A stretch of 64,000 nucleotides of DNA from a virus, in the IMG/VR virus record IMGVR_UViG_3300037512_001384, positions 6,442 to 70,441 of that record. One strand, written 5' to 3'. Positions 1 to 61,037 of this stretch are shown here, piece by piece. How positions within the stretch are numbered: the stretch's first letter is position 1; each line of letters starts with the position of its first letter. The notes beneath the pieces were generated by a model. It saw only the letters and a list, made by a program, of their open reading frames with translations. It was not told the origin of the DNA and searched no databases. A program made the translations under genes and the position numbers.

Positions 1-567
1 CAGGTCGCTCAGTTCCAGATTATGACCCGTGGCTTGATTCAGCTCGCCATACGTAGCGGTCAGTACCTCAGAATAACCAACGCCGTTGTACATGAGGGAG
101 AGCTTGTGAAGTATAACCCCTTCACTGATGACTACGAGTTTGACCCGACCAAACGCACAAGCGACAAGGTTATCGGTTATATGGCATACTTCCGTATGGT
201 TGACGGATATGAGAAGTATTTCTATATGACTGAGGCTGAAGTCCTGGCTCATGGCAAGAAATACTCCAAGTCTTTCAACTCCGGTCCTTGGAAGGACAAC
301 ACAGAGGCTATGTGTCTCAAGACCGTGATGAAGTTGCTCCTCTCCAAGTTCGGTATCCTGTCTATCGAGATGCAGCGTGCCATCAAGTATGACCAGGGTA
401 TCGCTAAGGGTGACTTCACTCAGATGGGTAGCGTCGAGGAGATTGACAATGCTGAAGTGGAATATGTCGATAACCCGGAAGAGAACAACAAGCCCGTTGA
501 AGAGAGCGCAGACAACAAGAAGGAAAGGATGCGCAAGGAAAAGAAGGAGAAACCGGAAATGCCGTAA
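1..567 (+). CDS. recT: RecT-family single-strand annealing protein (5' end cut by window edge)
   Basis: Open frame runs from nt 1. Shows RecT-like blocks (GLIQLAIRSGQ, VIGYMAYFRMVDGYEKYFYMTEAEV, SGPWKDNTEAMCLKT) and a K/E-rich tail. Confidence 0.75.
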   Translation, partial: QVAQFQIMTRGLIQLAIRSGQYLRITNAVVHEGELVKYNPFTDDYEFDPTKRTSDKVIGYMAYFRMVDGYEKYFYMTEAEVLAHGKKYSKSFNSGPWKDNTEAMCLKTVMKLLLSKFGILSIEMQRAIKYDQGIAKGDFTQMGSVEEIDNAEVEYVDNPEENNKPVEESADNKKERMRKEKKEKPEMP

Positions 568-570
568 CGC

Positions 571-2658
571 ATGAACAAATACAGCAGCTACACTCCCGAT
601 GAGATGGATAACCTCCTGTCAGGTTATCTCATCGATTCATGGTCATACAGTAAGGTCAACACCTTCGCCCGTAACGAGAAGCAGTTTGAGAAGAACTTCG
701 TCTATCTCGAACCGGACAAACGCAGTATAAGCTCCATTGCCGGTAACGCCTATCACGAGGCGTTGAGGGTTTTCTTCATGGGCTACAATGAAGGTGCGAA
801 GAAGCCGGATCTTGTGGAGTTGTCAACGGTGGCATATAACTACATAGATGATGTTGACGCTAACACATGGAAGCTCAGTGATACTTATCCTTCCGTTGAC
901 CAGGCAAGAGAGCAATGTATCAAGATTGTCACTCTTCTGATTCAGAACTTCTGCGGCGAGTATGGTATCTATACCGACCATATAGCTGAGGTTCTGTCCG
1001 TCGAGGTCAAGGAAGAGTCTCTGGTGGTCTGCAACGGTGTCGATATCCCATTACCTCTGCATTATATTGCAGACCTTGTGATACGCACAAAGGACGGAAA
1101 GGTTGTCATCATAGACCATAAGAGCAAAAGCGCCTATACCGGTGACGATGAGGTCTCTCTTGTGCATGGTCAGCAGGCTATCGCTTACGTACTCGGATAT
1201 GAGCAGCATGACGAGAAGGATGACCGCCATGTAGATGAGGTCTGGTTCATCGAGAATAAGTATTCCAAGAACAAGAACGGCAGCGAGCAGCTTCGTCTGC
1301 ACCGTTTCGTGATGGATGAGGACTCACGCAAATTGCATGAGTATTATCTCTATCAGCCTCTTCGTCGTATGATAGAAGCTGTGGCTGATCCTGACTACAT
1401 CTACACAATCAACGCATCTGACAACCTTGCTGACAAGGCAGAGCTTTACGAGTTCTCGGCACGCACTCTGATTGCAGAGGTTGATGACTTCCCCAATATC
1501 CCGGAAAGGAAGAAGCCTCTGATAGAGAAACGTCAGCGTAAAATCAAGGACTCCAGCATCGCGATGATTTCACCGCGAGTCATACGTTCATTCAGAAAGA
1601 ATGCAGCATCGTTTATTACTTTCGACTATTCGCATAGCAATATGACAAACAAAGAAAAAATCGAACATAAGTTCCGTACCTTCGGCAAACAGGTTCAGGT
1701 AAGCCATGAGATAGAAGGATTCTCATGTAACACCTATCTGTGTGAGGTGGCGGCAGGCATACCCATCGCTTCTCTTAAGACATACGCGAAGGATATCGCT
1801 TACGCTCTTGATGTTCCGTCAGTACGTGTCGCTCAGGACCTGGTGGTACATGAAGGACGTTCTTATCTTTCCATAGAAGTGAGTAAGAAGAGTTCCGAGA
1901 TACTGGCATGGGATGCCAAATATCTTGAGGGTCATCGCATACCTCTCGGACTTGACAACTTCAAAGAGCCGGTAATATGGGATTTGGAGAACCATTCCAC
2001 TCCGCACATGCTTGTCTGTGGTGCTACCGGTTCCGGAAAATCCGTTCTTATCCGCTCTACTATCGCCTATGCCCTTCTCGCCAAGATGCGCGTTATCATC
2101 ATGGATCCCAAATACGAGTTCTCTGCATTCTCAGACAGATGTGAGGTTCATTCGGATATCGCAGACATAGAGAAACGCATGAAGGAACTTGTTGAGGAGA
2201 TGCAAGCCCGCAAGGGTACTTTCGGCGGTCTCACACTGATAGTATTCGATGAGTTCGCTGATGCAGTTTCATCGGCTCGTTCCGGCAAGGAGCTTGACAT
2301 CAGAGAGGAAGTGACAGTCGGTGAGTATAAGGATGGCAGACCGAAGAAGGAGTGGATTGTCACAGGACGTGACAAGAGTCTGGAAGAGAACCTGCAGATG
2401 CTCCTGCAGAAAGGTCGTTCTCTTGGTTATCGCATCCTGTCTGCCACACAGAGAGCTTCAGCCAAGGTTATCACAGGTGACGCCAAGGTCAATTTCCCAT
2501 GTATCTGTTGTTTCAGAGTACCCAAGGCTCTTGACAGTAAGGTTGTGATTGATGAGGATGGCGCACAAGCCCTTGCCGGTAACGGTGACGGACTGTTCAA
2601 GTCGCCTGAGTACATGGATCGTCTCGTGCGATTCCAGGGATTCTTCTATAAAGGATAA
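571..2658 (+). CDS. RecB-family PD-(D/E)xK nuclease fused to FtsK/SpoIIIE-like ATPase domain
   Basis: N-terminal half has GNAYHEAL, a D...IIDHKSKS PD-(D/E)xK core and a QQAIAYVLGY QxxxY motif (Cas4/RecB-like). C-terminal half has Walker A CGATGSGKS, Walker B LIVFDEFAD and an FtsK-like SATQRAS...FPCICCFRV block. One continuous 695-aa ORF placed directly after recT. Confidence 0.75.
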   Translation: MNKYSSYTPDEMDNLLSGYLIDSWSYSKVNTFARNEKQFEKNFVYLEPDKRSISSIAGNAYHEALRVFFMGYNEGAKKPDLVELSTVAYNYIDDVDANTWKLSDTYPSVDQAREQCIKIVTLLIQNFCGEYGIYTDHIAEVLSVEVKEESLVVCNGVDIPLPLHYIADLVIRTKDGKVVIIDHKSKSAYTGDDEVSLVHGQQAIAYVLGYEQHDEKDDRHVDEVWFIENKYSKNKNGSEQLRLHRFVMDEDSRKLHEYYLYQPLRRMIEAVADPDYIYTINASDNLADKAELYEFSARTLIAEVDDFPNIPERKKPLIEKRQRKIKDSSIAMISPRVIRSFRKNAASFITFDYSHSNMTNKEKIEHKFRTFGKQVQVSHEIEGFSCNTYLCEVAAGIPIASLKTYAKDIAYALDVPSVRVAQDLVVHEGRSYLSIEVSKKSSEILAWDAKYLEGHRIPLGLDNFKEPVIWDLENHSTPHMLVCGATGSGKSVLIRSTIAYALLAKMRVIIMDPKYEFSAFSDRCEVHSDIADIEKRMKELVEEMQARKGTFGGLTLIVFDEFADAVSSARSGKELDIREEVTVGEYKDGRPKKEWIVTGRDKSLEENLQMLLQKGRSLGYRILSATQRASAKVITGDAKVNFPCICCFRVPKALDSKVVIDEDGAQALAGNGDGLFKSPEYMDRLVRFQGFFYKG

Positions 2659-3424: not shown

Positions 3425-4258
3425 ATGAAAGATTCATTTGTTTTTCATAAAGACTGGTACTTAGCCTTAAAAGGGTTAGACGTTCAAGACAAAGTTGAGG
3501 TCTATGAAGCTATAATGAGCAAAATATTTGATGGTGTAGATAAGAAACTTTCGCCTGTTGCACAGATGGCAATGAATTTTATTTCGCCACAAATTGAAAG
3601 GGATGTTGAACGTTATAATTCCATTTGTGAGCAACGCAAACTATTTGGTAGTAAGGGCGGTATAGCAAAAGCTACCAAAAGCTACCAAAAGGTAGCAAAA
3701 GGTAGCAAAAGCAAGCAAAAGGTGGCAAGTGTAGCTGATAATGATAATAATATATCATCTTCTACTAACGTAGAATCTGATAATGATATTATAGATATAG
3801 AAGTAAAAGATAAATCTTTTCCTTCTAAGAAAAAAAATAAATTATTTATACCGCCTACATTAAACGAAGTAGAGGCGTATGTAAAAGAAAAAGGCTATCA
3901 TTTCAGCGCCAAGGCATTCTTTGACTATTACGAAGCGGATGACTGGCATTACGGCAAAGGCAGTAATAGAACAAAGATATCGAACTGGAAGCGCTGTTGT
4001 GCCACATGGGAGGAGCGGCGTACTACAAGTAATAATATACCTCGTGAACCCGCATCGTTGTTTGATAACCATACTCCCGAACCGGAAGACGAACAGACTT
4101 TATTACAGAAAGCATACGAAGAACTGAACGACACCCAGGAGGCTGAGATATACGGAATGGTCCCCTATGAGTTTCACATGCTGAATGAGAACGGCAAGAA
4201 ATATTGGCGCGAAGTTTACAAGGAAAAGATGCTTGATTGGATCAAGAGCAACAGATGA
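3425..4258 (+). CDS. putative replication initiator (lambda O-like organisation; lysine-rich repeat linker)
   Basis: 277-aa ORF immediately upstream of the primase-helicase, stop overlapping its start (ATGA). Contains an in-gene 10-bp iteron array followed by an AT-rich stretch. C-terminal W-rich block (AFFDYYEADDWHYGKG...NWKRCCATWEER) resembles phage replication-protein C-terminal domains. Confidence 0.45.
   Translation: MKDSFVFHKDWYLALKGLDVQDKVEVYEAIMSKIFDGVDKKLSPVAQMAMNFISPQIERDVERYNSICEQRKLFGSKGGIAKATKSYQKVAKGSKSKQKVASVADNDNNISSSTNVESDNDIIDIEVKDKSFPSKKKNKLFIPPTLNEVEAYVKEKGYHFSAKAFFDYYEADDWHYGKGSNRTKISNWKRCCATWEERRTTSNNIPREPASLFDNHTPEPEDEQTLLQKAYEELNDTQEAEIYGMVPYEFHMLNENGKKYWREVYKEKMLDWIKSNR
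3661..3730. repeat. 10-bp iterons GCTACCAAAA x2 then inverted GGTAGCAAAA x2 (+2 degenerate copies) inside the initiator gene; candidate origin
   Basis: Read directly: aaagctaccaaaagctaccaaaaggtagcaaaaggtagcaaaagcaagcaaaaggtggcaag. GCTACC and GGTAGC are reverse complements. Followed by an ~80% AT stretch at 3735-3860. Confidence 0.6.
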
Positions 4259-6150
4259 GCGACAATATTCTTTATGTAGAGGATTTCAGACACGTCTTAG
4301 GCAGCAGGTCATCAGGTAACATAAAAACCTTCTGTCCTTTCTGCCATGAGAATCGTGGAAACAAGAGGGATAAATCCCTTTCGATAAACTGCGCGACCCT
4401 GGCATATAACTGCCATTATTGCGGTGCGAGCGGTTATCTGAAATCCCGGCATGAGGAAATGATGCGGAGAATAGACAGGGAAACAAGACAGATGTCCAAG
4501 ACTTATCGCAAACCCTCGGTCAAGCCCAACCTTCAACCTAAGCTCAATGCGGACATGGTTGAGTATTTCAAAGGGCGCGGCATCAGCGAGAAGACACTTC
4601 TTGAGGCGAAGGTCACAAAGGAGAATTTCTTTTTCCCGCAAGACAATTGCAAGCGCGGATGTATCGCTTTCAACTACTATGTTGATGACGAGCATATCAA
4701 CACCAAATATCGCACAAGGGACAAGCATTTCGCATTCATTGCCGGTGCCAAGGTAGTCCCCTATAACATAGACAGCATAAGAGAGAGCGCATTCAAGAAG
4801 GGTGAAAAGAAAATCTGCATCATCACTGAAGGTGAAGCGGATACTCTCACTTATATCGAATGCGGCTATAAGCATGTCATATCCATGCCGTCCGGTGCTA
4901 ACACCAATCTGGAATGGATGGATGACTTCACCGAATCCCACTTTGATAAACTTGAACTGATTTATGTATCGACAGACAGTGACAAGAAGGGTGTTGAAGC
5001 CAAGAATGAGATAGTACGAAGGTTTGGAGCTGAAGTATGTAAGATAGTTGAGTATCCGGAAGACTGCAAGGATATAAACGAGGTTCTTGTCAAATATGGA
5101 CCGGAGAAGGTAAAGGAATGCTTCGAGGGTGCTGCGGATATTAGAATCCAAGGTGTCGAGGAACTTGTTGACATAGAGTCAGACCTTGACAACCTGTTTA
5201 CTTCGGGACTTCAAAAGGGAGTAACCCTGGGATTGGAGGATATGGATAAACTTCTGTCCTTCAATACCGGAATGGTGACGGTCGTTACAGGAATCCCTTC
5301 GCACGGCAAAACCCAATGGTTGAATTTCGCTCTGATCAGACTCAATATCCTTCACTCATGGAAGGTGGCGTTCTTCTCTCCTGAGTTCTATCCTGTAGCG
5401 CTGCATATATCCCAAATCATAGAGACGCTTGGAGGTAAAAGGTTCTCATCCCAGAACTATACGCCTCAGACTTACGGCATCCTGAAGGAGTATGTCAACA
5501 AGAATTTCTTTTGGGTGGATCCTGATGACACGGATATAAGCTCAGTCTTGGACAGAGCCAAGTTCCTCATCCGCAAGAGAGGTATCAAGGCGTTTGTGAT
5601 TGACCCTTTCAATTCGCTGACAGACGAGAAGCGAACGATATACAAGCAGGATGAATATATTTCGGACTTCCTGCAGAAGATACGATGGTTCGCCAGGAAG
5701 TATGACGTTGCAATGTTCATCGTCATGCATCCCACCAAACAATACAAGCAGGATAACGGCTTATATCCGGTCTGTGACCTGTACTCATGTAAGGGTGCAT
5801 CTGAGATATACGACAAGGCTGATATCGGCATCACCGTATGGAGAAACGAGCAGGGTAATTACGGTGAGGTGCATGTGACCAAGATGAAGTTCCGTCACAT
5901 GGGACAGAAAGGACATGACACTTTCGTCTATAACTTCAATAACGCCCGGTTCGTTGAGATTCCCACTATGGACGCGAAGCGTGTGGCTCCCGACATGGAT
6001 AAAGTGAAGTGGGATAACAGCAATTATGTAATTGAGAATATCAAGACGCAGCAGAATCAGCAGGAATTGGATTTTGGAGCGGAGCAGCCGGAAACACCAC
6101 ATAATGAAAAACCCTTTGATGCGCCGATAGACGAAGATATCCCGTTCTGA
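4255..6150 (+). CDS. bifunctional DNA primase (Zn-finger + TOPRIM) / DnaB-like helicase
   Basis: CPFCHENRGNKRDKSLSINCATLAYNCHYCG zinc finger; TOPRIM ICIITEGEADTL; Walker A GIPSHGKTQW; Walker B AFVIDPFNSL. ATG at 4255 overlaps the upstream stop (an in-frame ATG at 4237 is the alternative start). C-terminus ends in an SSB-like DEDIPF. Confidence 0.85.
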   Translation: MSDNILYVEDFRHVLGSRSSGNIKTFCPFCHENRGNKRDKSLSINCATLAYNCHYCGASGYLKSRHEEMMRRIDRETRQMSKTYRKPSVKPNLQPKLNADMVEYFKGRGISEKTLLEAKVTKENFFFPQDNCKRGCIAFNYYVDDEHINTKYRTRDKHFAFIAGAKVVPYNIDSIRESAFKKGEKKICIITEGEADTLTYIECGYKHVISMPSGANTNLEWMDDFTESHFDKLELIYVSTDSDKKGVEAKNEIVRRFGAEVCKIVEYPEDCKDINEVLVKYGPEKVKECFEGAADIRIQGVEELVDIESDLDNLFTSGLQKGVTLGLEDMDKLLSFNTGMVTVVTGIPSHGKTQWLNFALIRLNILHSWKVAFFSPEFYPVALHISQIIETLGGKRFSSQNYTPQTYGILKEYVNKNFFWVDPDDTDISSVLDRAKFLIRKRGIKAFVIDPFNSLTDEKRTIYKQDEYISDFLQKIRWFARKYDVAMFIVMHPTKQYKQDNGLYPVCDLYSCKGASEIYDKADIGITVWRNEQGNYGEVHVTKMKFRHMGQKGHDTFVYNFNNARFVEIPTMDAKRVAPDMDKVKWDNSNYVIENIKTQQNQQELDFGAEQPETPHNEKPFDAPIDEDIPF

Positions 6151-6162
6151 TCAAGACATACT

Positions 6163-6175
6163 TTATAGGCATATT
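6163..6175. repeat. left inverted repeat of MTase inverton (TTATAGGCATATT)
   Basis: Perfect 13-bp reverse complement of 6692-6704; 18/20 match when extended. Confidence 0.8.
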
Positions 6176-6688
6176 ATATTTCTTAGAGCCATGCATTATG
6201 GTATCCTTGCGACCGTCATAACCGGTTGCTATCTCCTGTATGGCTTCATGGTCAAAGAAATACTTCTCCTGTTTTGACATCAGGAATATATATTCATGTG
6301 CCTTCGTACAGCGGTCTTTGATGCTTTCGGGCTGCGGATTCAGCTTATGCCAGATGATGTCATTTCTCAGACGGAATCCGATACGGTCTCTTAGTGCGAA
6401 AGCCGCCATCCAGGGAATACCGATAAGACTTTTTGCATTGTCATAGCTATCTCCGAGGTTCAGCCAGAGCGTTCCTTCCGGTTTAAGAACGCGAAACACT
6501 TCCGTGAATACTTCGGTGAGTCTGTCGATATACTCTTCTGGTGACTTCTCCAGACCTATCTGACCGTCAATACCGTAGTCTCGCAGATTGAAATATGGCG
6601 GTGAGGTGACACAGCAATCAACGCAGTTGTCAGGAAGGCTTTTCATTCCGGTGAGGCAGTCTTCATTGAAAACTTTGTTGATTTCCAT
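6163..6688 (-). CDS. N6/N4 DNA methyltransferase, 5' half (MEINK...DPPY...HEYIFLMSK), inverted relative to its 3' half
   Basis: Minus-strand ATG at 6686-6688. Carries MEINKVFNEDCLTGMKSLPDNCVDCCVTSPPY, IIWHKLNP and HEYIFLMSKQEKYFFD (PF01555-like N-terminal and middle regions). As it stands, the frame runs on antisense into the primase 3' end down to 6041. Confidence 0.75.
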
Positions 6689-6691
6689 TAC

Positions 6692-6704
6692 AATATGCCT
6701 ATAA
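6692..6704. repeat. right inverted repeat of MTase inverton (AATATGCCTATAA)
   Basis: Perfect 13-bp reverse complement of 6163-6175. In both orientations it encodes residues N-M-P-I in frame. Confidence 0.8.
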
Positions 6705-7108
6705 TGCCTTCGGGTAACAGGCAGACGATGGCTACGCACGGGCATCAGCGATGGAGGTTCAAGAACCTTCAGGATGATGGACAGCAACCCAATTCGATGC
6801 ATATCAGACGTGCTGCCGGATTGCCGGACCAGCAATATCCGGTCAGAAACAAAAGGGATGTATGGAGTGTAGCCACCAAACCTGAGAAGGCGGCTCATTT
6901 CGCTGTCTATCCCGAAGAGCTCATCAGACCTTGCATCCTTGCCGGATGTCCGAAAGGTGGCCTGGTGCTTGACCCGTTTATGGGAAGTGGCACGACAGCC
7001 AGGGTCGCCCGTAAGTACAATCGCAACTTCATAGGGTATGAACTGAACCCTGAATATATCAAGATTATCAATCAGAAGACGGTGGTGACACCGGACTTGT
7101 TCTCATAG
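6692..7108 (+). CDS. N6/N4 DNA methyltransferase, 3' half (HFAVYPEEL...DPFMGSGTT...), in frame with the right inverted repeat
   Basis: DVWSVATKPEKAAHFAVYPEELIRP and the motif-I VLDPFMGSGTTARVARKYNRNFIGYELNPEY match the C-terminal half of a beta-class MTase. The ORF is open from the IR; the first ATG is at 6695. Confidence 0.75.
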   Translation, partial: NMPIMPSGNRQTMATHGHQRWRFKNLQDDGQQPNSMHIRRAAGLPDQQYPVRNKRDVWSVATKPEKAAHFAVYPEELIRPCILAGCPKGGLVLDPFMGSGTTARVARKYNRNFIGYELNPEYIKIINQKTVVTPDLFS

Positions 7109-9292: not shown

Positions 9293-9363
9293 GGTCGTAT
9301 GGCGTAATGGTAGCGCAACAGACTTTGGTTCTGTGTGTCCCGGTTCGATTCCAGGTACGACTA
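9293..9363 (+). tRNA. tRNA-Gln (anticodon TTG)
   Basis: Cloverleaf folded by hand: acceptor GGTCGTA/TACGACT (G-U closing), D-arm GCGT-AATGGTA-GCGC, anticodon arm ACAGA-CTTTGGT-TCTGT (U33, TTG, G37), T-arm CCCGG-TTCGATT-CCAGG (one C-A mismatch), discriminator A. Confidence 0.65.
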
Positions 9364-9498
9364 CAAATTATTTCAGGGGAAATAAAACCTGAATCGGGGA
9401 AATTTTATCGCCCCAAAATGTGAGAGAAAGGCAATATTGGGAAATCAAAGGAAAATTTCCCCTGTTTTTCAGGTCAAACGGAACAACAAGAAAACAAC

Positions 9499-13554: not shown

Positions 13555-14334
13555 ATGGGTACAAAAATAGAGTGGACCAACAAGGTATGGAATCCCGTAT
13601 CGGGCTGCACTAAGGTCAGTGAGGCTTGCCAGAACTGTTATGCTGAAGTGATGGCAAGACGTCTGAGCGGAATGCCTGGCAGCAAGGAGAAATACAAGGA
13701 TGGATTCAAGGTGACGATTCACCCGGAAAGCCTCTATGAGCCTTACAAGTGGAAGAAACCATGCATGGTCTTCGTTTGCTCTATGGGCGACCTGTTCCAT
13801 GATGATGTTCCTATCCAGTTCATTGACGAGGTGATGAACGTGATCAGCGAGAATCCGCAGCACACGTTCCAAATTCTCACCAAGCGGGCTGGAGCGATGT
13901 ATTCATATTTTCAACATGAGGATGTTCCGAAGAACGCATGGCTCGGTGTCACCTGCGAGAGTGCCAAACATTATGACAGGGTGAGTCTTCTCCGTGATAT
14001 TAACCGTGTGAGTCTTCTCACCGATTTCCATAGCAAGACTGTCAAGTTCCTGTCATGCGAGCCTCTGTTGGGTGACATGGCGGATATAAACCTTGACGGT
14101 ATTGATTGGGTGATTACAGGAGGCGAAAGCGGTTCGCGAGCCCGAAGGACACCGATTGAATGGTTTCGGAATCTTCGTGACAGGTGTGTCGAGACCGGCA
14201 CGCCTTTCTTTTTCAAGCAATGGGGTGCGTTCGGCCCGGATGGTATCAAACGCAGCAAATATCTGAACGGTTCTGTACTGGACGGTCAGCAGTGGAAACA
14301 GATGCCACTTATAAAGCAAGACGATAATGATTGA
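13555..14334 (+). CDS. phage Gp37/Gp68-family protein (DUF5131)
   Basis: IEWTNKVWNPVSGCTKVSEACQNCYAE, CSMGDLFHDDVP, QHTFQILTKR and FLSCEPLLGD blocks typical of this family; directly upstream of a C5-MTase. Confidence 0.65.
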   Translation: MGTKIEWTNKVWNPVSGCTKVSEACQNCYAEVMARRLSGMPGSKEKYKDGFKVTIHPESLYEPYKWKKPCMVFVCSMGDLFHDDVPIQFIDEVMNVISENPQHTFQILTKRAGAMYSYFQHEDVPKNAWLGVTCESAKHYDRVSLLRDINRVSLLTDFHSKTVKFLSCEPLLGDMADINLDGIDWVITGGESGSRARRTPIEWFRNLRDRCVETGTPFFFKQWGAFGPDGIKRSKYLNGSVLDGQQWKQMPLIKQDDND

Positions 14335-20736: not shown

Positions 20737-20770
20737 CATATACGGCCCGGAGAAAAACAATATCATTCTA

Positions 20771-21745
20771 ATGTATCGAAAAAAGAAACCGGCAGGTTTT
20801 GATGAACGTCTTCAGTGGTCTATCAATTTGTTGAAGAAAGCAGAAAAACTCGCTTTGCAATATGATCCTGATGACGGATTCTATTTAGCCTTCTCAGCAG
20901 GCAAGGATTCCCAAGCATTATATCACATCGCCAAACTTGCAGGTGTCAAGTTTCAGGCTCACATGAACTTTACGAGTATTGACCCTCCAGAGGTTATTCG
21001 CTTCTGTCGCGAACATTATCCTGATGTCATAACTCATGCACCCGAGGACAGCATCTACAATATTGCCGTAAACGGGAAATATCTGCTGCCTTCACGTATC
21101 ATTAGATGGTGCTGTGCCATTCTTAAAGAGACTGGAGGTGCCGGTACGGTCTGTCTTACAGGTGTACGCAGACAGGAAAGCATCAGACGCTCCAAACGTA
21201 ACAGCGTTGAAGTTAGCAACAGCTCCTTCTCCGGGGACCTCGATGCCTTCGAGACGTGGAGAAAAGAGAAGATTGCCAAGAAGATTCAGCATCTCAACCA
21301 GGACCAATTCAGTGAACAAGACGAGGAACAAATCAGATGTATCGGCGGCAAGGATAAAATCATTGTCAATCCGATAATAGACTGGTCTGAGTCTGATGTC
21401 TGGTATTTTCTCAACGAAGTTGTGAAAGTGCCTCACTGCTCGCTATATGACAGAGGATATAAACGTATCGGATGTATCTGCTGTCCTATGGCAAATTATA
21501 AGCAGAAACTCATCGAATTGGCGGATTACCCCCATGTCAAGCGCAACTGGATAAATGCCATCAAGCGGATACGCGAGCAGGGTATCGCAAAGAATATCCT
21601 GACAGAGAACTATTTCGGCAATGGTACGGAAGACGAGATATGTGAGAACATCTTCCAATGGTGGATCAGCGGGAAATCCTATGACGAATGGTATGCTGAG
21701 ACATTCCTTCAGCAAAGGATTGATTTTGGAGAGGAACAACAATAG
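20771..21745 (+). CDS. PAPS-reductase-family PP-loop ATPase with C-terminal Cys cluster (IbrA/DUF3440-like)
   Basis: PP-loop AFSAGKDSQAL; C-terminal RIGCICCPMA; sits directly upstream of the flanked MTase. Confidence 0.65.
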   Translation: MYRKKKPAGFDERLQWSINLLKKAEKLALQYDPDDGFYLAFSAGKDSQALYHIAKLAGVKFQAHMNFTSIDPPEVIRFCREHYPDVITHAPEDSIYNIAVNGKYLLPSRIIRWCCAILKETGGAGTVCLTGVRRQESIRRSKRNSVEVSNSSFSGDLDAFETWRKEKIAKKIQHLNQDQFSEQDEEQIRCIGGKDKIIVNPIIDWSESDVWYFLNEVVKVPHCSLYDRGYKRIGCICCPMANYKQKLIELADYPHVKRNWINAIKRIREQGIAKNILTENYFGNGTEDEICENIFQWWISGKSYDEWYAETFLQQRIDFGEEQQ

Positions 21746-21771
21746 AATGATATTGTAACCGGCAGTAGCAA

Positions 21772-21789
21772 ACAATATGTGGGTATTGT
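21772..21789. repeat. left inverted repeat flanking MTase A (ACAATATGTGGGTATTGT)
   Basis: 17/18 match to the reverse complement of 22468-22485 (13-bp perfect core ATGTGGGTATTGT). Confidence 0.55.
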
Positions 21790-21798
21790 ATTTCCATT

Positions 21799-22455
21799 TC
21801 AGAATAATTCGAGTTGTGTGATTGTGGTGCCGTCTTGCAATTTGGTCTCTCCGAGGCATTCCTCCCTGAACCGCTCTTCCTGGAGGTCATAGTATTCTTT
21901 GCTTATCTCACAAGCGTAGAAGTCAAACCCCATCTTATAGGCAGCGATGCGGCTTGAACCACTTCCAAGATGGCTGTCGAATATCTTGTCACCCGGCTTT
22001 GCGAAGGTCTTTAGCAGATAGGCGTATAGTTCTATTGGTTTACAGGTGGGATGCCATACAACCTTGTCGATGTGACCGCCTCGGTTGGATATTGTGATCA
22101 GTTTGGCTGGTTTATCAAATGACGTCCAGGCAAACTCACATTGACTGAAGTTCTCCCATACCTGCTGCTTATCCCAGATGACAAAGCAACGGCAAGGAGG
22201 TAAGGGAAAGTAGTTACCTCCCCAGATAATCTGGTTCTTGCTGACGCGGAATAACTCCTTCCAATATTCTGTGGGGGGTGCAACATCCCAACTCATATCA
22301 TGGCGGTTGAGGGTGCGATTCTTAAGTTTCCCGCTCCCTTGAACAGAGGATTTCTTGAGCTGATACGGCGGGTCCACTATCGCAAGGTCAAAGAATGCGT
22401 CTGGAAGCGTCTTCATATAGGCTAAGCAGTCTGTATTGAACACTTCGCTAACCAT
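21799..22455 (-). CDS. N6-adenine/N4-cytosine DNA methyltransferase (beta class), MTase A
   Basis: DLAIVDPPYQ (motif IV), VWHPTCKP, FDSHLGSGSSRIAAYKMG (motif I); 218 aa; whole gene bracketed by inverted repeats. Confidence 0.8.
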   Translation of the reverse strand: MVSEVFNTDCLAYMKTLPDAFFDLAIVDPPYQLKKSSVQGSGKLKNRTLNRHDMSWDVAPPTEYWKELFRVSKNQIIWGGNYFPLPPCRCFVIWDKQQVWENFSQCEFAWTSFDKPAKLITISNRGGHIDKVVWHPTCKPIELYAYLLKTFAKPGDKIFDSHLGSGSSRIAAYKMGFDFYACEISKEYYDLQEERFREECLGETKLQDGTTITQLELF

Positions 22456-22467
22456 TGTCTTTGGGTA

Positions 22468-22485
22468 ACAATACCCACATAATGT
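22468..22485. repeat. right inverted repeat flanking MTase A (ACAATACCCACATAATGT)
   Basis: Lies in the 31-bp gap between the divergent start codons of MTase A and MTase B. Confidence 0.55.
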
Positions 22486-27696: not shown

Positions 27697-29073
27697 TTAC
27701 AGGCGCAGTGTACCCGCTCTTGCCGCCTCACAGCGTCTCAGCACCTCCTTACGGTCACGTATGAGTATCCTGGCTCTCATATCCATACCTTCGCCCGTGG
27801 GCTTATCCAGGACACCTATCGCAACCATCGTGAGGAAGTCCTCGATTGCCATACGGCGTGTAAGAAGGAAGGGGAACATACCGAAGTTACGTGGCGTCAA
27901 CTCTGTCCTGCCTTGTGACTCCTGCAGGAAGAGGCATTCGGGTTGTCCCTTGATAGTAACGGTGACACATGGCGCATCCTCCTGTCCCGGGATGTCAAGC
28001 ACGGAACCGGTAAATGTACCTCTGCAGACAAGGTTGAGCAGTATAGCATCCTCGATGTACTCCGTATCTGCATATCCGCATTGTACGCGCACGTCATCAA
28101 TGCCGTCTGAGTAGAGCATATCACCCTTACCCATCAGGTCCTCGGCACCGGTATGGTCGAGGATGACACGCGAATCAATACCCGATGCGACGCGGAACGC
28201 GATACGTACCGGGAAGTTCGCCTTGATGTTTCCTGTCACGATGGTCGCCGACGGACGTTGCGTGGCTATGATCATGTGGATACCGACGGCACGGGCTTTC
28301 TGTGCGATACGGCATATCATACGCTCCATATCCTTCCCGGCTGTCATAATAAGGTCGGCATACTCGTCTATGACCACGATGCAGTAACGCATGTAGTCTT
28401 CACCGTTGAGCTTGTCATTATACTCTTTGATGTTACGTACTCCTTTCTGCGAGAGAAGGGTGTAACGGTACTCCATGAGGTTAATGACACGCTGCAGGAT
28501 AGCGACAGCATCCTCTGTGGTCGTGGCTATGTCATCGGCGAGATACTTGTGCCAGAGAGGAGCGTAGATGTTGAGCTCAACCTGTTTGGGGTCGATGAGC
28601 ACCAACTGCATCTCTTCCGGTGTGCGCTTGCTCATCAGTGAGAGCAGCAGCATGTTCAGGCATACCGACTTACCTTGACCGGTCGCACCGGCAATAAGCA
28701 GGTGCGGCATCTGTGTGAGGTCACGGATGAAGAGTTCTCCCTGTACCGTCTTGCCTATGGCGCATGGAAGTGCCATCCTGCAGGACTCGTAATCGACATG
28801 ATGCAGAACGCTGTCCATGTGTACTATCTGACGTTGGAAGTTGGGAACCTCAATGCCAATCGTACCGCCTGCGAGCGGTCCCATGATGCGTACCGACTCC
28901 GTACCGACCGCCAAGGCAAACTCATCAGCGAGTCTGCGTACACGTGTCATATTCACACCCATATCCGGTCTGAACTCATACAGGGTGACGCTGGGTCCTT
29001 TCGTGACTCTCCAGCTCAGCGGTTCAATCTTATGAACCCTGAGCACCTGTTCTAACTTGTAAGTGTAATCCAT
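27697..29073 (-). CDS. FtsK/SpoIIIE-family DNA translocase (motor + gamma-like domain)
   Basis: Walker A IAGATGQGKS; Walker B IVVIDEYADL; IATQRPSATIVTGNIKANFPVRIAFRV; C-terminal winged-helix-like EDFLTMVAIGVLDKP. Start MDYTYK is preceded by the conserved array upstream element. Confidence 0.8.
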   Translation of the reverse strand: MDYTYKLEQVLRVHKIEPLSWRVTKGPSVTLYEFRPDMGVNMTRVRRLADEFALAVGTESVRIMGPLAGGTIGIEVPNFQRQIVHMDSVLHHVDYESCRMALPCAIGKTVQGELFIRDLTQMPHLLIAGATGQGKSVCLNMLLLSLMSKRTPEEMQLVLIDPKQVELNIYAPLWHKYLADDIATTTEDAVAILQRVINLMEYRYTLLSQKGVRNIKEYNDKLNGEDYMRYCIVVIDEYADLIMTAGKDMERMICRIAQKARAVGIHMIIATQRPSATIVTGNIKANFPVRIAFRVASGIDSRVILDHTGAEDLMGKGDMLYSDGIDDVRVQCGYADTEYIEDAILLNLVCRGTFTGSVLDIPGQEDAPCVTVTIKGQPECLFLQESQGRTELTPRNFGMFPFLLTRRMAIEDFLTMVAIGVLDKPTGEGMDMRARILIRDRKEVLRRCEAARAGTLRL

Positions 29074-29320
29074 AATGATTGTTTGAGTTATTATTGGCGG
29101 AGCAGCTGATGTCACTCAATCAGCTCCAGGACGTGGGATTTGTCCTTTGGAAAAGTGATGCGCACCCATGTCAATGAGTACGCATCTGTTTAACTCTTTA
29201 AATACTACAACTATGCGCCTCACGGCGTTCGTATGTAATAATTAGCACAAAGATAAGGATTCGCCCTTATCCTTGTATGGCGATGTTAATCCTTAACATA
29301 GTTAATGTACGGATTTAACA

Positions 29321-39004: not shown

Positions 39005-39997
39005 TCACGCATCGGCCCAGTAAGTCCAAGTGTGGATCTTGCTCACCCCGTAGCGGTTGAGGTAGGCGTCGAGACGTTTGCGGAACTTCTCCAGCCCGAA
39101 CTTCAGACCGTCAAGGATGAGGGCGCGTTCCTCCTTGCTCGCCTCATGGCCTTCGTTGTTGTACCACGACCTGCCGATAAGGAAATCGAGCTTGTTCTTG
39201 TAACCTGTCTCAGCGATACGCAGTGTCTCACCCTTCTCGATGCTCTCAATGGAGCGAGTGAAGGCGCTTTCGTTCTGCTGGATGAAATACTGACGGAGTT
39301 TACTCTCGTCTTTCATCAGCTCGCAATAGAACTTATAGTCCGGTCCTTCGTCATGGAAGCAGAAGCGGTTGTCTATTGACGGCTTGGTTATCAAGTAGAA
39401 ATGTCCGTCAATCTTCACCGCTCCGACACATCCCTTGCTGTAGTAGTCGCGGTCTGACTTGTCATCTTTGCACTCGGTGTCAAGAAACTCGCTGAGCCAC
39501 GTGATGAACTTCTCGTCCTTCTTGGCAGTCTTCTCGACCTTGGCGGTAATATGTGATGCTCCGCCTCCGATGAACGCCTCCACAGCCTCGCGCTTGTCGT
39601 TATTGAACAGCCAGCCCGCTCCGCAGGAGAGGAACTTGTTGAACTTCCAAGCCCCGAGTTTCTTCAGCTGCTCGCGGTAAGTGAACGTGTCACCCACAAC
39701 CGCGAAGCATTTCTCTGAATATTCTACGATTCTCAGGTCAGGCCCGTCGGTTTTCAGAGCCGCCTTGATGTCGTTGAAATCCTCCTCACCCAGCCAATCC
39801 GAACAGGAGAGGCCGTCAGGGAAATCCTCGGTGTCCTGAATCATAAACTCCGGATCGCTCTCGTTCTTGTGCAGTTCTTTGCACTTCGAGATAAACGCAT
39901 TGTAGTTCTCACAATCCGCGAGAGAAACCCATCCGCCCGCGATGCTGCCGTTGTTGTACTTACCCCAAGTACCGACATAAACTTTTGGATTACACAT
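39005..39997 (-). CDS. ardA: ArdA-like anti-restriction protein (N-terminal ArdA domain + C-terminal extension)
   Basis: N-terminus KVYVGTWGKYNNGSIAGGWVSLADCENYNAFISKCKELHKNESDPEFMIQDTEDF matches the ArdA family start (VYVg..a.YN.G.L.G.W..L...e...); 330 aa with the upstream element. Confidence 0.6.
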   Translation of the reverse strand: MCNPKVYVGTWGKYNNGSIAGGWVSLADCENYNAFISKCKELHKNESDPEFMIQDTEDFPDGLSCSDWLGEEDFNDIKAALKTDGPDLRIVEYSEKCFAVVGDTFTYREQLKKLGAWKFNKFLSCGAGWLFNNDKREAVEAFIGGGASHITAKVEKTAKKDEKFITWLSEFLDTECKDDKSDRDYYSKGCVGAVKIDGHFYLITKPSIDNRFCFHDEGPDYKFYCELMKDESKLRQYFIQQNESAFTRSIESIEKGETLRIAETGYKNKLDFLIGRSWYNNEGHEASKEERALILDGLKFGLEKFRKRLDAYLNRYGVSKIHTWTYWADA

Positions 39998-45370: not shown

Positions 45371-45609
45371 GATCCCAGAGTTTCGGCAATAGGTGCAAAC
45401 CGATGAACACACAACCAACACGGCAATAAAGCGGAAAAGTTGCAAGGAGCGACAAACCCCACAACGGACCGACAACGCGACCGCGAGCGGATACAATACA
45501 ATTATAATGTATTTGTTTTGCAGGAAAAACCGCGCGAATACCCCACCCAGAGAAGGCTACCCCCGACCCCCTAAATACGTTTGTATTGCGTGGGGGTCAG
45601 CCCCCGCCG

Positions 45610-45975: not shown

Positions 45976-46013
45976 ACCAAATTTCGATACCCAGGTATTG
46001 GTTTGTTTAGTTA

Positions 46014-47483
46014 TTGTTTTTATATATGGGTAAAGGTACACAAAACAACAATTTCACGCTTATTGAAGACCTTAGTAAGCTGATTTACAACTCGCTGAAC
46101 AAAGCTCCGTTGAAGGAGTCCTATAAGCTGTATTCATCGGGTGACAGGGTATATGTCTATCAGGAGGTCATCCTTGATGCCTGCAGCAAGTGTTTCCGGT
46201 CTTACATGGGTGATGTATATTACTTCGACGGCAGGATATGGTGTCCTCTGGCTGATATTGTGCTTGAGACTGCGTTGAGCAAGGCGTTGGTGCAGGGAGG
46301 AGCGCGTAAGTCGGATATCGTGAATGCCAGGAGCAAGATTCTGTATTCGGCACGTGGCGGTGCGTCGATGTCACCGTTGGAGTTGCGTGCGTCGGTCATC
46401 GGATTCCGTAACGGCGTATGGGATTTCACTGACATAGACAACCCGGTCTATCACTCTTTTGCCGAGCGTATGCCTGTGGTGCGGATACTCCCTTACGACT
46501 ATGACCCTGATGCGGGCTGTCCGAAGTGGCAGGCGTTCCTGCAGTCCATCTTGCCGAAGGGTGAGATAATGAAGCTCCAGAAGTACCTCGGTCTCGGCTG
46601 TGCTGACCGTAAGAGCATGACGCATAAGATTGAAGAGACGCTGTGGCTCATCGGGTCGGGTGCCAACGGCAAGTCCACCATCTTCGACGTGGTACGCGGG
46701 GTGTACGGTGCGGATAACATCAGCTATGTGGGTCTCGATACGCTGCTTAGCGGCTCGTCGGACGTGCGTGCGCGGTTCATCGGGAGCATCGTGGGTAAGA
46801 TCTTCAACTACTGCTCGGAGATACAGGCGGATGACATATCACGTTACGCCGATACCTTCAAGTCCCTCTGTTCGGGTGAGCCGCAGACCGTGAGAAGGTT
46901 GGGTCAGAACCCCGAGACCACCTTCGACATACCGTTCCTTGTGTTCAACATGAACCAGAAGCCCACGAACCGGCGTATGGACCAGGCTCTCGTGCGCCGT
47001 CTGCTCTTCATACCTTTCAAGACCACCGTCTCTGCCGCCGACATGAACCGTGAGCTCTCGTCGGAGCTGCTGAAGGAGCTGCCGGGTATCCGCAACTGGA
47101 TGATAGAGGGCTATAAGATGCTCATACGTGACGGCTATCAGTTCAACACCACCAAAGCCGCCGATGATGAGATGACCGACTACATGCTGGAGAACGGTCA
47201 GACGGTGCAGGTGTTCCTACAGAAGAAGGGCTACTCATGTAACAGGCGCACGGGACACTGGGAGGACCGTATCCAGTGGGTTCCTGCGTCCGCTCTCTAT
47301 GAGGACTATGTGTCGTTCTGCGAGAAGTGGCTGCAGGATCCTGTCAAGCAGCGTGCTTTCGGCAGTGAGATGGCACGTCTCGGATGGCATGAGACGGGAG
47401 GGAACCGCAAACGTACCGGCACGGGTTACGCCTACGGCATCTTCTGCGAGAAGGATATCGATTACGCAAAAAATAACATCTGA
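46014..47483 (+). CDS. P4/D5-family SF3 helicase (phage/plasmid primase C-terminal domain + D5_N-like)
   Basis: NGVWDFTDIDN...CPKWQAFLQSIL...LWLIGSGANGKST (Walker A)...FNMNQKPT...RRLLFIPF. Confidence 0.75.
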   Translation: MFLYMGKGTQNNNFTLIEDLSKLIYNSLNKAPLKESYKLYSSGDRVYVYQEVILDACSKCFRSYMGDVYYFDGRIWCPLADIVLETALSKALVQGGARKSDIVNARSKILYSARGGASMSPLELRASVIGFRNGVWDFTDIDNPVYHSFAERMPVVRILPYDYDPDAGCPKWQAFLQSILPKGEIMKLQKYLGLGCADRKSMTHKIEETLWLIGSGANGKSTIFDVVRGVYGADNISYVGLDTLLSGSSDVRARFIGSIVGKIFNYCSEIQADDISRYADTFKSLCSGEPQTVRRLGQNPETTFDIPFLVFNMNQKPTNRRMDQALVRRLLFIPFKTTVSAADMNRELSSELLKELPGIRNWMIEGYKMLIRDGYQFNTTKAADDEMTDYMLENGQTVQVFLQKKGYSCNRRTGHWEDRIQWVPASALYEDYVSFCEKWLQDPVKQRAFGSEMARLGWHETGGNRKRTGTGYAYGIFCEKDIDYAKNNI

Positions 47484-47486
47484 GCT

Positions 47487-47768
47487 ATGGTGACGGGAAG
47501 AGACAGACAGCCGCTCTCGGAGGAGCAGGAGCGTGAGATAAGGAAGGAGCTGGAGATGATGGACGCCGACGAGCGTGCCATGCTCGCGGGTTACGGACTC
47601 CCGCAGATAAGACGTATCCGTGACATCTGCCATTCGGACATGCAGCCGGATGCGATGAGCGCGATACTGCGTATGGAGGGTTTCGTCAACATAGCCGATG
47701 ACATAGACCGCCGCCTGGAGGAATACAGGCAATACAGGGAGAAGCATAAAAACGACACTATTGTTTAA
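47487..47768 (+). CDS. hypothetical protein
   Basis: 93-aa ORF. Confidence 0.45.
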   Translation: MVTGRDRQPLSEEQEREIRKELEMMDADERAMLAGYGLPQIRRIRDICHSDMQPDAMSAILRMEGFVNIADDIDRRLEEYRQYREKHKNDTIV

Positions 47769-47783
47769 CCAATACTATTATCT

Positions 47784-48608
47784 ATGAAGAAGTTTCTTTT
47801 GTTTCTGGCAGTAGCTTTATTGACAAGCATTGCGATGACCTCCTGTCACGGTGTCCGTCCGGATGCCGACGAGGAGGCGGTGCTCATTCACAAGCCGTGG
47901 TTCTTCGGTCATGGCGGCGTGGCAGATAACCCTGTCGAGACCGGACTGCGCTGGTGCTGGTGGAGCACGTCGAGTGAGACGTTCAAGATCGTGCCGCAGA
48001 AGCAGCAGGTGGATATGGAGGACTTGGTATCCAACGACAACACACCGCTGGACTTCCATACGGTCATCATCACGCAGATCGTCAAGGGCAAGTCACCCGT
48101 CCTGCTGGTCAACTACGGCACGGACTGGTTCAACACCAACCTCTACAACTACTACTGTAACCGTGTGCGTGACTACATATCACAACACAGCCCCTTCGAC
48201 CTGATGTCCAATCGTGAGGTGTTAAATGAGATTGACACCAAGGTGCTCAGGGAGATGCGCGAGTACGTAGCCGAGCTGTCAGCCGAGAAGGAGTTCCCCG
48301 TGGAGATAAAACAGGTGGTCATCGGACGTGCCATTCCCAACGCGGAGCAGCTGGAGGAGATGAACCGCACCGCCAAGGCTGTTCAGGCGAAGCAGACACA
48401 GGAACGTGAGGTGGAGGTGCAGCTGGCACGTGAGAAAGCCGAGCGTCAGCGTGCCATCGCGGATAAAGCCTATCAGAATGAGATGGGACTGTCGGCACAG
48501 CAGTTCATACAGCTCAAGGCATGGGATATCATCGCGCAGAAGCAGGGTGCCAACATAGACGTCCTCTTCGATGCGGACGGAGCAAGCAAGATGTGGAACA
48601 TTAAATAA
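47784..48608 (+). CDS. SPFH/band-7-like lipoprotein
   Basis: Lipoprotein signal MKKFLLFLAVALLTSIAMTSC. C-terminal coiled AEQLEEMNRTAKAVQAKQTQEREVEVQLAREKAERQRAIADKAYQ typical of SPFH (HflK/C-like) proteins. Confidence 0.55.
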   Translation: MKKFLLFLAVALLTSIAMTSCHGVRPDADEEAVLIHKPWFFGHGGVADNPVETGLRWCWWSTSSETFKIVPQKQQVDMEDLVSNDNTPLDFHTVIITQIVKGKSPVLLVNYGTDWFNTNLYNYYCNRVRDYISQHSPFDLMSNREVLNEIDTKVLREMREYVAELSAEKEFPVEIKQVVIGRAIPNAEQLEEMNRTAKAVQAKQTQEREVEVQLAREKAERQRAIADKAYQNEMGLSAQQFIQLKAWDIIAQKQGANIDVLFDADGASKMWNIK

Positions 48609-48616
48609 CTATCACT

Positions 48617-49348
48617 ATGGGTACAATCAGAGTAGGACAGAAAGACCCCAAGAAATTCGCAAACGAGGGTATCACACTGGTACGTCCCACCAAGGTGGAG
48701 GCAGGGACCTCCATGACAGAGGACGAGAAGAAGCGTTTCATCGACGCCGTGATGCAGATGCCGAAGGAGAAGCGTGTCGGTATGCTGCGTGAGAAGGGTC
48801 TCACGAAAGAGGCTGACGAGTATGAGCAGTTTCTCGCGGAGGATCACCTGCGTGAGATGCGCGAAGCCAACCGCAAGAAACGTCTTGAGGATATACGTAC
48901 ATTACCGGAGGATGAGCAGCTGCCGCTCCTGATAGCCGAGGGTTATGAGGATGAGGCGGAGGAGCTGTCCGCCAAACTCGCCGAGGAGAAAGCCGCCGAG
49001 AAAGCCGCGAAAGCGGCAGCAGAGGCTAAGGGCTCAGGCGAGGGTAAGGAAGATACTGATGCCGGCACCGGTGAAGGTGAGCAAGCCCCCGAACAGAACG
49101 GTGAGGGTGAGCAGGCATCAGGTGAAGCCAAGGAGGGTGAGGAAACCCAGGAGGAGGCACCTGCTGACGCTGCACCTGCTGAGAGCGAGGCTGCACCAGA
49201 GCCAGAGCCGGAACCCGAGCCCGAACCTGCACCTGCACCGGCGGAGGAGAAAGCCGCTGTGAATGAGAGTAAGAGCAAGAAGAACGTCGCCAAGGCACCA
49301 TCCAAGGCCAAGGCTCCGTCAAAAGCAAATAACCCTTCAAAGAAGTGA
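48617..49348 (+). CDS. acidic low-complexity protein (E/A/K/P-rich; EPEPEP repeats)
   Basis: 243-aa ORF; the out-of-frame ORFs 48943-49311 (-) and 48945-49262 (+) are repeat artefacts. Confidence 0.45.
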   Translation: MGTIRVGQKDPKKFANEGITLVRPTKVEAGTSMTEDEKKRFIDAVMQMPKEKRVGMLREKGLTKEADEYEQFLAEDHLREMREANRKKRLEDIRTLPEDEQLPLLIAEGYEDEAEELSAKLAEEKAAEKAAKAAAEAKGSGEGKEDTDAGTGEGEQAPEQNGEGEQASGEAKEGEETQEEAPADAAPAESEAAPEPEPEPEPEPAPAPAEEKAAVNESKSKKNVAKAPSKAKAPSKANNPSKK

Positions 49349-49351
49349 GTT

Positions 49352-51404: not shown

Positions 51405-51416
51405 TAACAATGTGAT

Positions 51417-52624: not shown

Positions 52625-52644
52625 CCGACGGCTCATAAGAAGGC

Positions 52645-52686
52645 GAAAGGCGATCTCTTCACAGAGACCGCCTTTCTGATTTTTAA
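52645..52686. terminator. bidirectional rho-independent terminator between convergent operons
   Basis: GAAAGGCG...CGCCTTTC stem followed by TGATTTTTAATTT. Confidence 0.65.
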
Positions 52687-52702
52687 TTTCATTACTATGA
52701 TG

Positions 52703-53587: not shown

Positions 53588-53590
53588 GAA

Positions 53591-55348: not shown

Positions 55349-55359
55349 ATCTGTTGATG

Positions 55360-58152: not shown

Positions 58153-58261
58153 ATACGGTGTATTTCATTGGTAAAATGAAAGATTACCAAAATAAAAGCG
58201 CTTAGGAAAACACCAATCACTATAATTTGGCGAAAAATCTTTACAAATTATAGCAATTGGT

Positions 58262-59125: not shown

Positions 59126-59171
59126 TCCAGGGGGCAAACAAAAGGTTTGTTAAACAAAAACTCACAGAAAA

Positions 59172-59834: not shown

Positions 59835-59851
59835 ACAAAGGAGATTAGATT

Positions 59852-61015: not shown

Positions 61016-61037
61016 TACTTTGACAATGTGATTTGAC

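Follow-up and report, generated by a model that had tools for sequence, protein, structure and literature searches.

The stretch of DNA analysed here, referred to throughout as the window, comprises 64,000 nucleotides of a virus (positions 6442–70,441 of IMG/VR record IMGVR_UViG_3300037512_001384) and comes from contig k141_4620388 (107 kb) of assembly ERZ27256849. Downstream of a primase-helicase gene it carries a DNA methyltransferase (MTase) gene, which we call MTase A, in two pieces that lie on opposite strands. The sequence TTATAGGCATATT is found at 6163–6175 and its exact reverse complement at 6692–6704, and the segment bounded by these perfect 13-bp inverted repeats, inverton A, is the main subject of this study. 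The genome features a terminase, lysis genes, an integrase and a 2422-aa tail-type protein, in agreement with an earlier reading of the locus from the letters alone (the original prediction), which had assigned it to a phage. The terminase is 49% identical to that of Bacteroides LoVEphage, and the element is best described as a temperate gut Bacteroidales phage and a distant relative of LoVEphage.

A methyltransferase gene split at inverted repeats

In the window the N-terminal half of MTase A begins MEINKVF at a minus-strand ATG (6688–6686), and its open reading frame (ORF) runs antisense into the 3′ end of the primase gene to a stop at 6041. The C-terminal half follows the right repeat on the plus strand, as an ORF at 6695/6704–7108. 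Motif IV, with the catalytic residues, and motif I, which binds S-adenosylmethionine (AdoMet), are on different strands in this OFF state. Most of this arrangement had been set out in the original prediction, and its description holds: the coordinates and complementarity of the repeats, the minus-strand start 3 nt inside the right repeat, the plus-strand half beyond that repeat and the in-frame N-M-P-I residues, which the right repeat encodes within the coding sequence, were all found as it had given them. The repeat pair can be extended to 16 nt with 94% complementarity, and the window contains no further copies of the 13-mer core. The 215-aa OFF product matches PF01555 in loci L003, L005, L007 and L008. 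For the C-terminal half, gene callers start at 6704; this 134-aa version is present among recorded proteins, from which the 137-aa version that begins at the ATG at 6695 is absent.

When 6163–6704 was reverse-complemented in silico, the two halves formed a single ORF of 309 aa, which starts at 6179, so that the left site lies just upstream of the start codon in the ON state. This start is 28 nt past the primase stop codon; the original prediction was right to place it in the plus-strand operon, but had given the distance as 27 nt. Residues 23–298 of the 309-aa product correspond to positions 1–220/221 of the PF01555 model (E = 1.1e-56; 192.7 bits against a cut-off of 26.7), with SPPY (motif IV) at residues 29–32 and FMGSGTT (motif I) near residue 265, which is the beta order. 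Matches to the flipped product in protein collections include P0001 (100% identical) and P0002 (99%), and full-length homologues number in the thousands. The expectation that a flip would restore one MTase of about 309 aa, collinear with PF01555, is thus borne out by the full-length model match and by an identical protein encoded in another assembly. The ON-state product is predicted to be a PF01555 beta-class N6-adenine or N4-cytosine DNA methyltransferase; the nearest solved structures include both N4-cytosine and N6-adenine enzymes. A search of GenBank phages by DNA returned distant MTase matches only, with no close relative. Two other proteins, P0012 (516 aa) and P0112 (517 aa), cover about 65% of MTase A at 65–79% identity but exceed it in length by some 200 aa, perhaps because rearrangement at their loci gave rise to a read-through or a fusion.

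Both orientations of inverton A

Assemblies of the same phage (95–100% nucleotide identity) were found by looking up a neighbouring protein. The locus that carries P0001 (L001, assembly ERZ27257203) differs from the window at 1 position in 7.1 kb (99.986% identity), and in it the 542-bp segment is inverted exactly at the repeats. In blastn alignments, the inversion breakpoints in L001, L002 and L004 overlap 6163–6175 and 6689/6692–6704. Across independent assemblies inverton A was ON in four (L001; L004, SRR24653781; L002/L006, SRR17418320; the junction of L011, SRR17023456) and OFF in five (the window; L007, SRR8543131; L005, SRR14597532; L008, SRR17418359; L051, ERZ27257204).

The flanking sequences place these states on a tree. 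Over 3196 nt of the right flank the window (OFF), L007 (OFF) and L001 (ON) are identical, and L005 (OFF) differs from the window at 72 positions. In the left flank, L005 is nearest to L004 (ON), with 11 differences, as against 51 to the window (OFF). Within the segment itself, pairs of OFF alleles are no more similar to each other than are ON–OFF pairs. Since orientation is scattered over the flanking-sequence tree, at least three independent inversion events are required. The earlier interpretation of the locus as a phase-variable inversion is also supported by the occurrence of both orientations in otherwise identical genomes (L001 and the window) and by their scatter on this tree.

The repeats, at 13–18 nt, are far shorter than the k used by the assemblers (141 for MEGAHIT, 31 for Logan), so the junctions were spanned by real k-mers and are real. 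Furthermore, a mixture of orientations predicts a branch in the assembly graph at the last or first k-mer common to both, and contigs were found to end at exactly these nodes in samples ERZ27257203, ERZ27257204, SRR17418358, SRR17023456 and SRR34397668. L001 (k = 141) opens with a 141-mer whose final base is 6175, the last one shared; contig L010 starts at 6692; and L011 starts with the first ON-specific 31-mer, comprising 17 nt from the segment, all 13 nt of the repeat and a single flanking nucleotide. At inverton C, described below, the opening 141-mer of L019 (k = 141) likewise reaches to the last base of the site that both orientations share, and contig L017 starts at 22468. As indirect evidence, these contig ends suggest that both orientations were present within those samples. 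A further pair, L063 and L107, comes from one metagenome and shows opposite states; it was dropped as within-sample evidence, the two being different strains and L107 a duplicate of L031.

The repeats are also conserved in more distant loci, which were drawn from IMG/VR, Joint Genome Institute (JGI) metagenomes and one Bacteroidaceae metagenome-assembled genome. The nearest match among metagenome-assembled genomes is to a Bacteroidaceae genome from red deer. Homologues of MTase A at 65–72% protein identity have a perfect repeat pair of 12–18 nt at the same two positions, upstream of the start and at codons ~171–176. Seven or eight of these loci are ON (L022, L053 and L060–L065, some of which may be duplicate records of one contig), and three unique loci are OFF and split at the same residue (L028, L029 and L031, the last identical to L107). 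The central 6 nt are CAGGAA, CAGGTA or TAGGAA in the relatives, compared with TAGGCA in the window, and always match between both arms. With the window included there are four spacer alleles in all, each identical in its two arms. Homologues of MTase A at 63% identity or less lack the repeat pair. The repeats of inverton A appear to be maintained by selection. In the clade at 72% identity a second inverton begins 3–5 nt past the MTase A stop codon (L060 3043–3323; also L061, L062 and L064; L068 827–1108). It takes in the first ~80 codons of a C5-cytosine-MTase-like gene, the start codon and motif I among them, and leaves the PCQ motif outside. One site of the OFF relative L029 (2669–2690) has an extra T, a 1-nt insertion at the boundary of spacer and inner arm that brings the perfect repeat down to 12 nt; either the switch may be locked in this phage or the insertion may be a sequencing error.

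Invertons B and C and a common recombination site

Two more segments of the window, invertons B and C, lie 15 nt apart (Table 1). Inverton B encloses a whole gene for a phosphoadenosine phosphosulphate (PAPS)-reductase-like protein (20771–21745), which is co-directional with the operon in the window. Inverton C encloses a whole gene for a 218-aa PF01555 MTase with the motif DPPY (21799–22455), which in the window is antisense to the plus-strand operon and hence OFF. Among contigs that are 98–100% identical, each segment was seen in both orientations, independently of the other and with breakpoints on the repeats. Relative to the window, both are flipped in L015 and L021, B alone is flipped in L018, and C is flipped in L016, L019 and L020, in which B is not covered. 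Homologues of the 218-aa MTase in IMG/VR lack flanking sites in 79 of 80 cases, the single one that has them being L175.

The link between the invertons became visible only once an 18-nt form with arms and a spacer had been recognised. All six inverton sites have the form ACAWTA-N6-TAWTGT, with a spacer that invariably begins with T. Both sites of a pair have the same spacer, which is TGCCTA in inverton A, TCATTC in B and TGTGGG in C, and no two pairs have it in common. Perfect 18-nt sites number 5 in the window against 0.02 expected, and inverted pairs with the same spacer number 3 against 0 in 200 random windows; in the 1.83 Mb of all fetched loci, site pairs were found at invertons only. 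Variant bases of the inner arms travel with the segment and those of the outer arms stay behind, which places the crossover inside TA-N6-TA. With its inverted arms and an asymmetric 6-nt spacer matched in partners, the site appears to be of the simple core type used by tyrosine recombinases.

A 13-bp repeat alone would not be significant, because a perfect inverted pair of this length within 1 kb should arise by chance about 0.6 times per 64-kb window. The window holds 3 such pairs of 13 nt or more, compared with 0.64 ± 0.89 in random sequence. The repeats gain their significance because the breakpoints of rearrangement fall exactly on them, because the three in the window are the three invertons and because they have one 18-nt site pattern. 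This set of three invertons, with a common site architecture and a candidate recombinase encoded in the window, goes beyond what the original prediction had noticed.

The same arm consensus recurs in a distant phage (IMGVR_UViG_3300021254_000044; L175 989–4836 and L256 7201–8013), where four adjacent site pairs have four different spacers. The cassettes in L175 hold one gene each, encoding a CxxxCxxC radical-SAM-like protein, a PAPS-reductase-like protein, a PF01555 MTase and an NPPY protein, and all four are co-directional. The window itself has a lone perfect site at 45493–45510, which sits exactly at a step in G+C content from ~45% to ~53%. No partner for it was found in 84 kb of the contig, and it gave no tRNA or Rfam match. 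We considered the lone site as an attP and rejected this, since all 5 contigs have the same phage-form arrangement and none of them shows an integrated form. The lone site may serve resolution, as a dif/lox-like site and perhaps the original target of the enzyme that acts on the invertons.

Table 1. Positions of the split gene, invertons, sites and other features in the window.
Feature	Position	Strand	Remarks
Primase-helicase (Toprim + DnaB_C)	4237..6150	+	Gene upstream of MTase A in the plus-strand operon
OFF-state N-terminal fragment of MTase A	6041..6688	-	Called as 215 aa; without AdoMet-binding motif I; PF01555 match
Left site, inverton A	6160..6177		OFF reads ACTTTA-TAGGCA-TATTAT; perfect core 6163-6175; inversion breakpoint of L001, L002 and L004 maps here
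Invertible segment, inverton A	6176..6691		MTase gene from its start codon to about codon 171, with motif IV (SPPY); OFF orientation in the window
Right site, inverton A	6690..6707		ACAATA-TGCCTA-TAATGC; perfect core 6692-6704; within coding sequence; encodes N-M-P-I
OFF-state C-terminal fragment of MTase A	6704..7108	+	134 aa (137 aa from ATG at 6695); motif I (FMGSGTT), no catalytic motif IV
tRNA-Gln (TTG)	9293-9364		Phage early region
DUF5131 gene	13555-14334		Precedes the C5 MTase gene; further anti-restriction equipment
C5 MTase (PF00145), 578 aa	14327-16063		Further anti-restriction equipment
Inverton B	20757..21756		Sites ACAATA-TCATTC-TAWTGT at 20757-20774 and 21739-21756
Inverton C	21772..22485		Sites ACAWTA-TGTGGG-TATTGT at 21772-21789 and 22468-22485
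Fixed, non-invertible PF01555 MTase, 252 aa	22487..23245	+	Start codon 1 nt past right site of inverton C
Xer-like tyrosine recombinase (PF00589), 280 aa	26668..27510	-	Candidate invertase; R, H-x-x-R, H, Y align with XerA
FtsK-like DNA translocase	27697..29115	-	Adjoins the 280-aa recombinase gene
ArdA homologue	39005-39997		Further anti-restriction equipment
Lone perfect site	45493..45510		ACAATACAATTATAATGT = ACAATA-CAATTA-TAATGT; in a 900-bp non-coding region

The proposed switch, its enzyme and its counterparts

Given that the inversions were observed to recur, with exactly defined breakpoints and at sites that are conserved and covary, we consider it very probable that 6163–6704 is a programmed, reversible inversion switch in a temperate Bacteroidales phage. 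In the proposed mechanism, recombination would take place between an 18-nt site just upstream of the MTase A start and its inverted partner in the variable middle region of the gene, at codons 172–175, and would flip the promoter-less 5′ half of MTase A. In the ON state the intact gene would be co-transcribed behind the primase in the plus-strand operon. In the OFF state the catalytic half would be antisense and the AdoMet-binding half a stranded fragment, and because the halves are separated no active MTase A should be made. Invertons B and C would each flip a whole DNA-modification gene relative to the operon. Identity of the spacers would restrict recombination to cognate partners, so that the three could flip independently of one another and give up to 8 modification states. 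The benefit may lie in progeny with mixed modification patterns, hedged between hosts with classical restriction-modification (R-M) systems and hosts with modification-dependent restriction.

The inversions would be catalysed by a tyrosine recombinase, most likely the Xer-like enzyme of 280 aa encoded by the phage. It is the only PF00589 protein encoded in the window, 4.2 kb from inverton C and 20 kb from inverton A, and its motifs GARTSD, HTARRS, MNH and SRY align with XerA (4a8e). The enzyme was rejected as XerC or XerD proper, since it scores far below the NCBIfam equivalog cut-offs (XerA, 37.9 bits against 220; XerD, 26.9 against 329.6; XerC, 23.6 against 335; E 1e-9) and is Xer-like in fold and size only. 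Its gene is 100% conserved in every contig with inverton C, and a homologue of 49% identity is encoded 6 kb downstream of the inverton array of L175/L256. The precomputed Pfam annotations of called genes, which were inspected over the contig from roughly −10 kb to +73 kb, include no serine recombinase (PF00239). On these grounds the 280-aa enzyme is the leading candidate for the catalyst, with a probability that we would put somewhat above even. The FtsK-like neighbour here, and a ParA-like one in the related phage BI-TP1, hint at a role in resolution or segregation of a circular or plasmid-like form.

We extend this proposal to the phage lineage more tentatively, and with rather less than even confidence. 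One Xer-like recombinase may there act as a combinatorial switchboard which, through private spacers, would generate up to 2^n epigenetic virion types per burst or lysogen population. Its targets would be genes for N6/N4 MTases, a C5 MTase, PAPS-reductase-like and radical-SAM-like proteins, taken whole or by their 5′ half, and its effect would be to hedge the progeny between R-M hosts that demand modification and type IV or modification-dependent hosts that punish it. The lone site at 45493 and the FtsK-like gene adjacent to the recombinase gene may reflect an ancestral, dif-like resolution function of the enzyme. If true, the switchboard would be the natural counterpart of engineered heterospecific-lox FLEx switches.

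Several points weigh against the inversion switch and the enzyme as set out above. The within-sample mixture and reversibility rest on the positions of contig ends and on the tree, and not on direct read counts, and the two OFF-state halves could in principle still be expressed. The remaining points concern the recombinase. Relatives of the 280-aa protein at 36–64% identity were found at 36 IMG/VR loci by an alignment-based scan (a single-protein scan had given 1 locus), and none of these has such sites within ±10 kb. The homologue in BI-TP1, a phage of the LoVEphage type, adjoins a ParA-like gene and a large integrase (L052 18721–21989), which suggests a different primary job. A second tyrosine recombinase, a 378-aa integrase with an Xis-like neighbour, is encoded ~3.9 kb upstream of the window, and the Bacteroidales hosts encode many invertases.

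The alternative that survives best, though we think it unlikely, is a programmed inversion by that 378-aa integrase or by a host Bacteroidales invertase, for which the phage would carry target sites only. The lack of sites near the relatives of the 280-aa enzyme and the presence of the second recombinase both speak for it, as do the numerous chromosomal invertases for which Bacteroidales are known and which act in trans (PMC7641763). However, the simple 6-6-6 cores, with no sign of arm-type sites, fit a small Xer/Cre-like enzyme better than a lambda-type integrase, and both the conservation of the 280-aa gene together with inverton C and the presence of a homologue near the array of a distant phage count against this alternative. 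A lone perfect site in a non-coding region of the phage likewise suggests an enzyme–site pair specified by the phage.

It is a good deal less probable that the paired sites serve mainly as cassette boundaries for the exchange of modification genes between co-infecting phages, with inversion as a by-product. Discrete gene cassettes do lie between their own site pairs (B and C here, and four in L175), and modular MTase swaps between Bacteroides prophages have been described (PMC10333322). Exchange is harder to reconcile with inverton A and the C5-MTase inverton of the 72% clade, which cut coding sequences and flip the 5′ part only, as suits switching, or with the same cassette in both orientations in otherwise identical genomes. 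A one-off illegitimate recombination or template switching at a chance repeat, which would make the MTase of the window a pseudogene, is very improbable: a repeat of this length is by itself no surprise and the OFF state does destroy the MTase ORF, but OFF occurs in at least three separate lineages with ON nested among them, roughly every second contig is OFF, relatives at 65–72% protein identity retain the repeat with spacers that covary, and two more invertons of the same genome have the same 18-nt site form. Least probable of all is an assembly artefact in which the assembler mis-oriented a segment between short repeats, for although assemblers are well known to go wrong at inverted repeats and several contigs do break there, the junctions need real k-mers at values of k far above the repeat length, each orientation was recovered repeatedly by two pipelines from unrelated samples, and breaks at the sites are the outcome of a true mixture.

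The inversion switch proposed here has counterparts of several kinds. The Mu G/Gin, P1 C/Cin, e14 P/Pin and Salmonella Hin systems use serine invertases, 26-bp gix/cix sites and a Fis enhancer, and the phages among them swap the C-terminus of a tail fibre and with it host range. In Mu, P1 and e14, too, a phage genome has its own inversion system, which gives two genotypes per lysate and thus bet-hedging. The present phage differs from them in its tyrosine-type 6-6-6 cores, the lack of an annotated serine recombinase, its DNA-modification targets and its several invertons with different spacers. The core sites of Cre/loxP, Flp/FRT, XerCD/dif and engineered heterospecific lox (FLEx/DIO) likewise have inverted arms and an asymmetric spacer that sets orientation and must be the same in both partners. 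Sites of the lox, FRT and dif types with different spacers do not cross-react, so that one enzyme can carry out independent inversions. Here, however, the arms are ~6 nt, as against 13 (lox) and 11 (dif), the enzyme is only distantly Xer-like, and heterospecificity is predicted from the sequence. Phasevarions (Mod/type III MTases of Haemophilus, Neisseria and Helicobacter) also turn an MTase ON and OFF stochastically and yield epigenetically mixed populations, but they are bacterial, work by slippage at simple sequence repeats and serve gene regulation, whereas the present system is viral and works by inversion. No repeat tract was visible on reading the MTase A gene, on which a tandem-repeat finder was not run.

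Among bacterial invertons, those of hsdS (S. pneumoniae SpnD39III/ivr, B. fragilis; PMC7672463, PMC7641763, PMC4948785) similarly alter the methylation of a population through short-repeat inversions. They are part of bacterial defence, and the shuffling of specificity domains changes the motif; here, in a phage, solitary type-II-like MTases and a PAPS-reductase-like gene would be turned ON or OFF. A type I R-M hsdS shufflon was rejected for the present locus, as hsdS, hsdM and hsdR genes are all absent and inversion acts on whole genes or on the 5′ half of a gene for a type-II-like MTase. The gene-altering, ‘partial intergenic’ and intragenic invertons of bacteria (Milman 2023, PMC9881135; Chanin 2023, 10.1101/2023.03.11.532203) have the layout of inverton A, with one repeat upstream of a gene and one inside it. 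These were described in bacterial chromosomes and include type II RM, BREX and DISARM genes, but the two studies report neither phage-MTase invertons nor sets with common arms and different spacers. LoVEphage, BI-TP1 and Phocaeicola PV4-TP1 resemble the present phage in being temperate, in their homologous terminase (49%), small tyrosine recombinase (37–39%) and large integrase (36%), and in having several MTase and PAPS-reductase genes. No ACAWTA-N6-TAWTGT site pairs were found in the 40.8 kb of BI-TP1 that were examined, and the two LoVEphage papers make no mention of inversions. No prior description of phage-MTase invertons was found in the literature searched, where many subscription journals were outside coverage, and none of the systems compared combines a phage genome with ON/OFF switching of solitary modification genes and with invertons that have common arms and private spacers.

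Methyltransferases carried by phages are usually seen as constitutive anti-restriction armour. Here several modification genes appear to be toggled stochastically, which implies that modification has a cost, be it modification-dependent restriction or effects on the lysogen, and phages would then phase-vary their counter-defences much as bacteria phase-vary their defences. Bacteroides prophages have many MTase genes without a detectable motif, and their MTase cassettes look modular (PMC10333322); inverton switching is one explanation for both. In about half of assemblies, gene callers and virome pipelines will take such genes for fragments or pseudogenes. A compact natural recombinase with 18-nt sites and apparently orthogonal spacers could also serve for multiplexed genetic switches in Bacteroidales.

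The rest of the window is of mixed composition. Positions 1–46,000, with genes for replication, modification and anti-restriction, have a G+C content of 42–50%, and positions 46,000–64,000, with a D5-like primase, the terminase and structural genes, one of 51–55%. Since LoVEphage homologues occur in both halves, this is probably a mosaic phage and not two elements. No recombination sites were found around the C5 MTase, DUF5131 and ArdA genes (Table 1). In L005 the DUF5131 gene is immediately preceded by an inserted gene for an HNH_3 endonuclease. The recombination module consists of RecT and a 695-aa PDDEXK-FtsK/DUF87 fusion protein in the window (22..2658), and of a DUF3799 exonuclease and a longer RecT in L005 (3420–5361).

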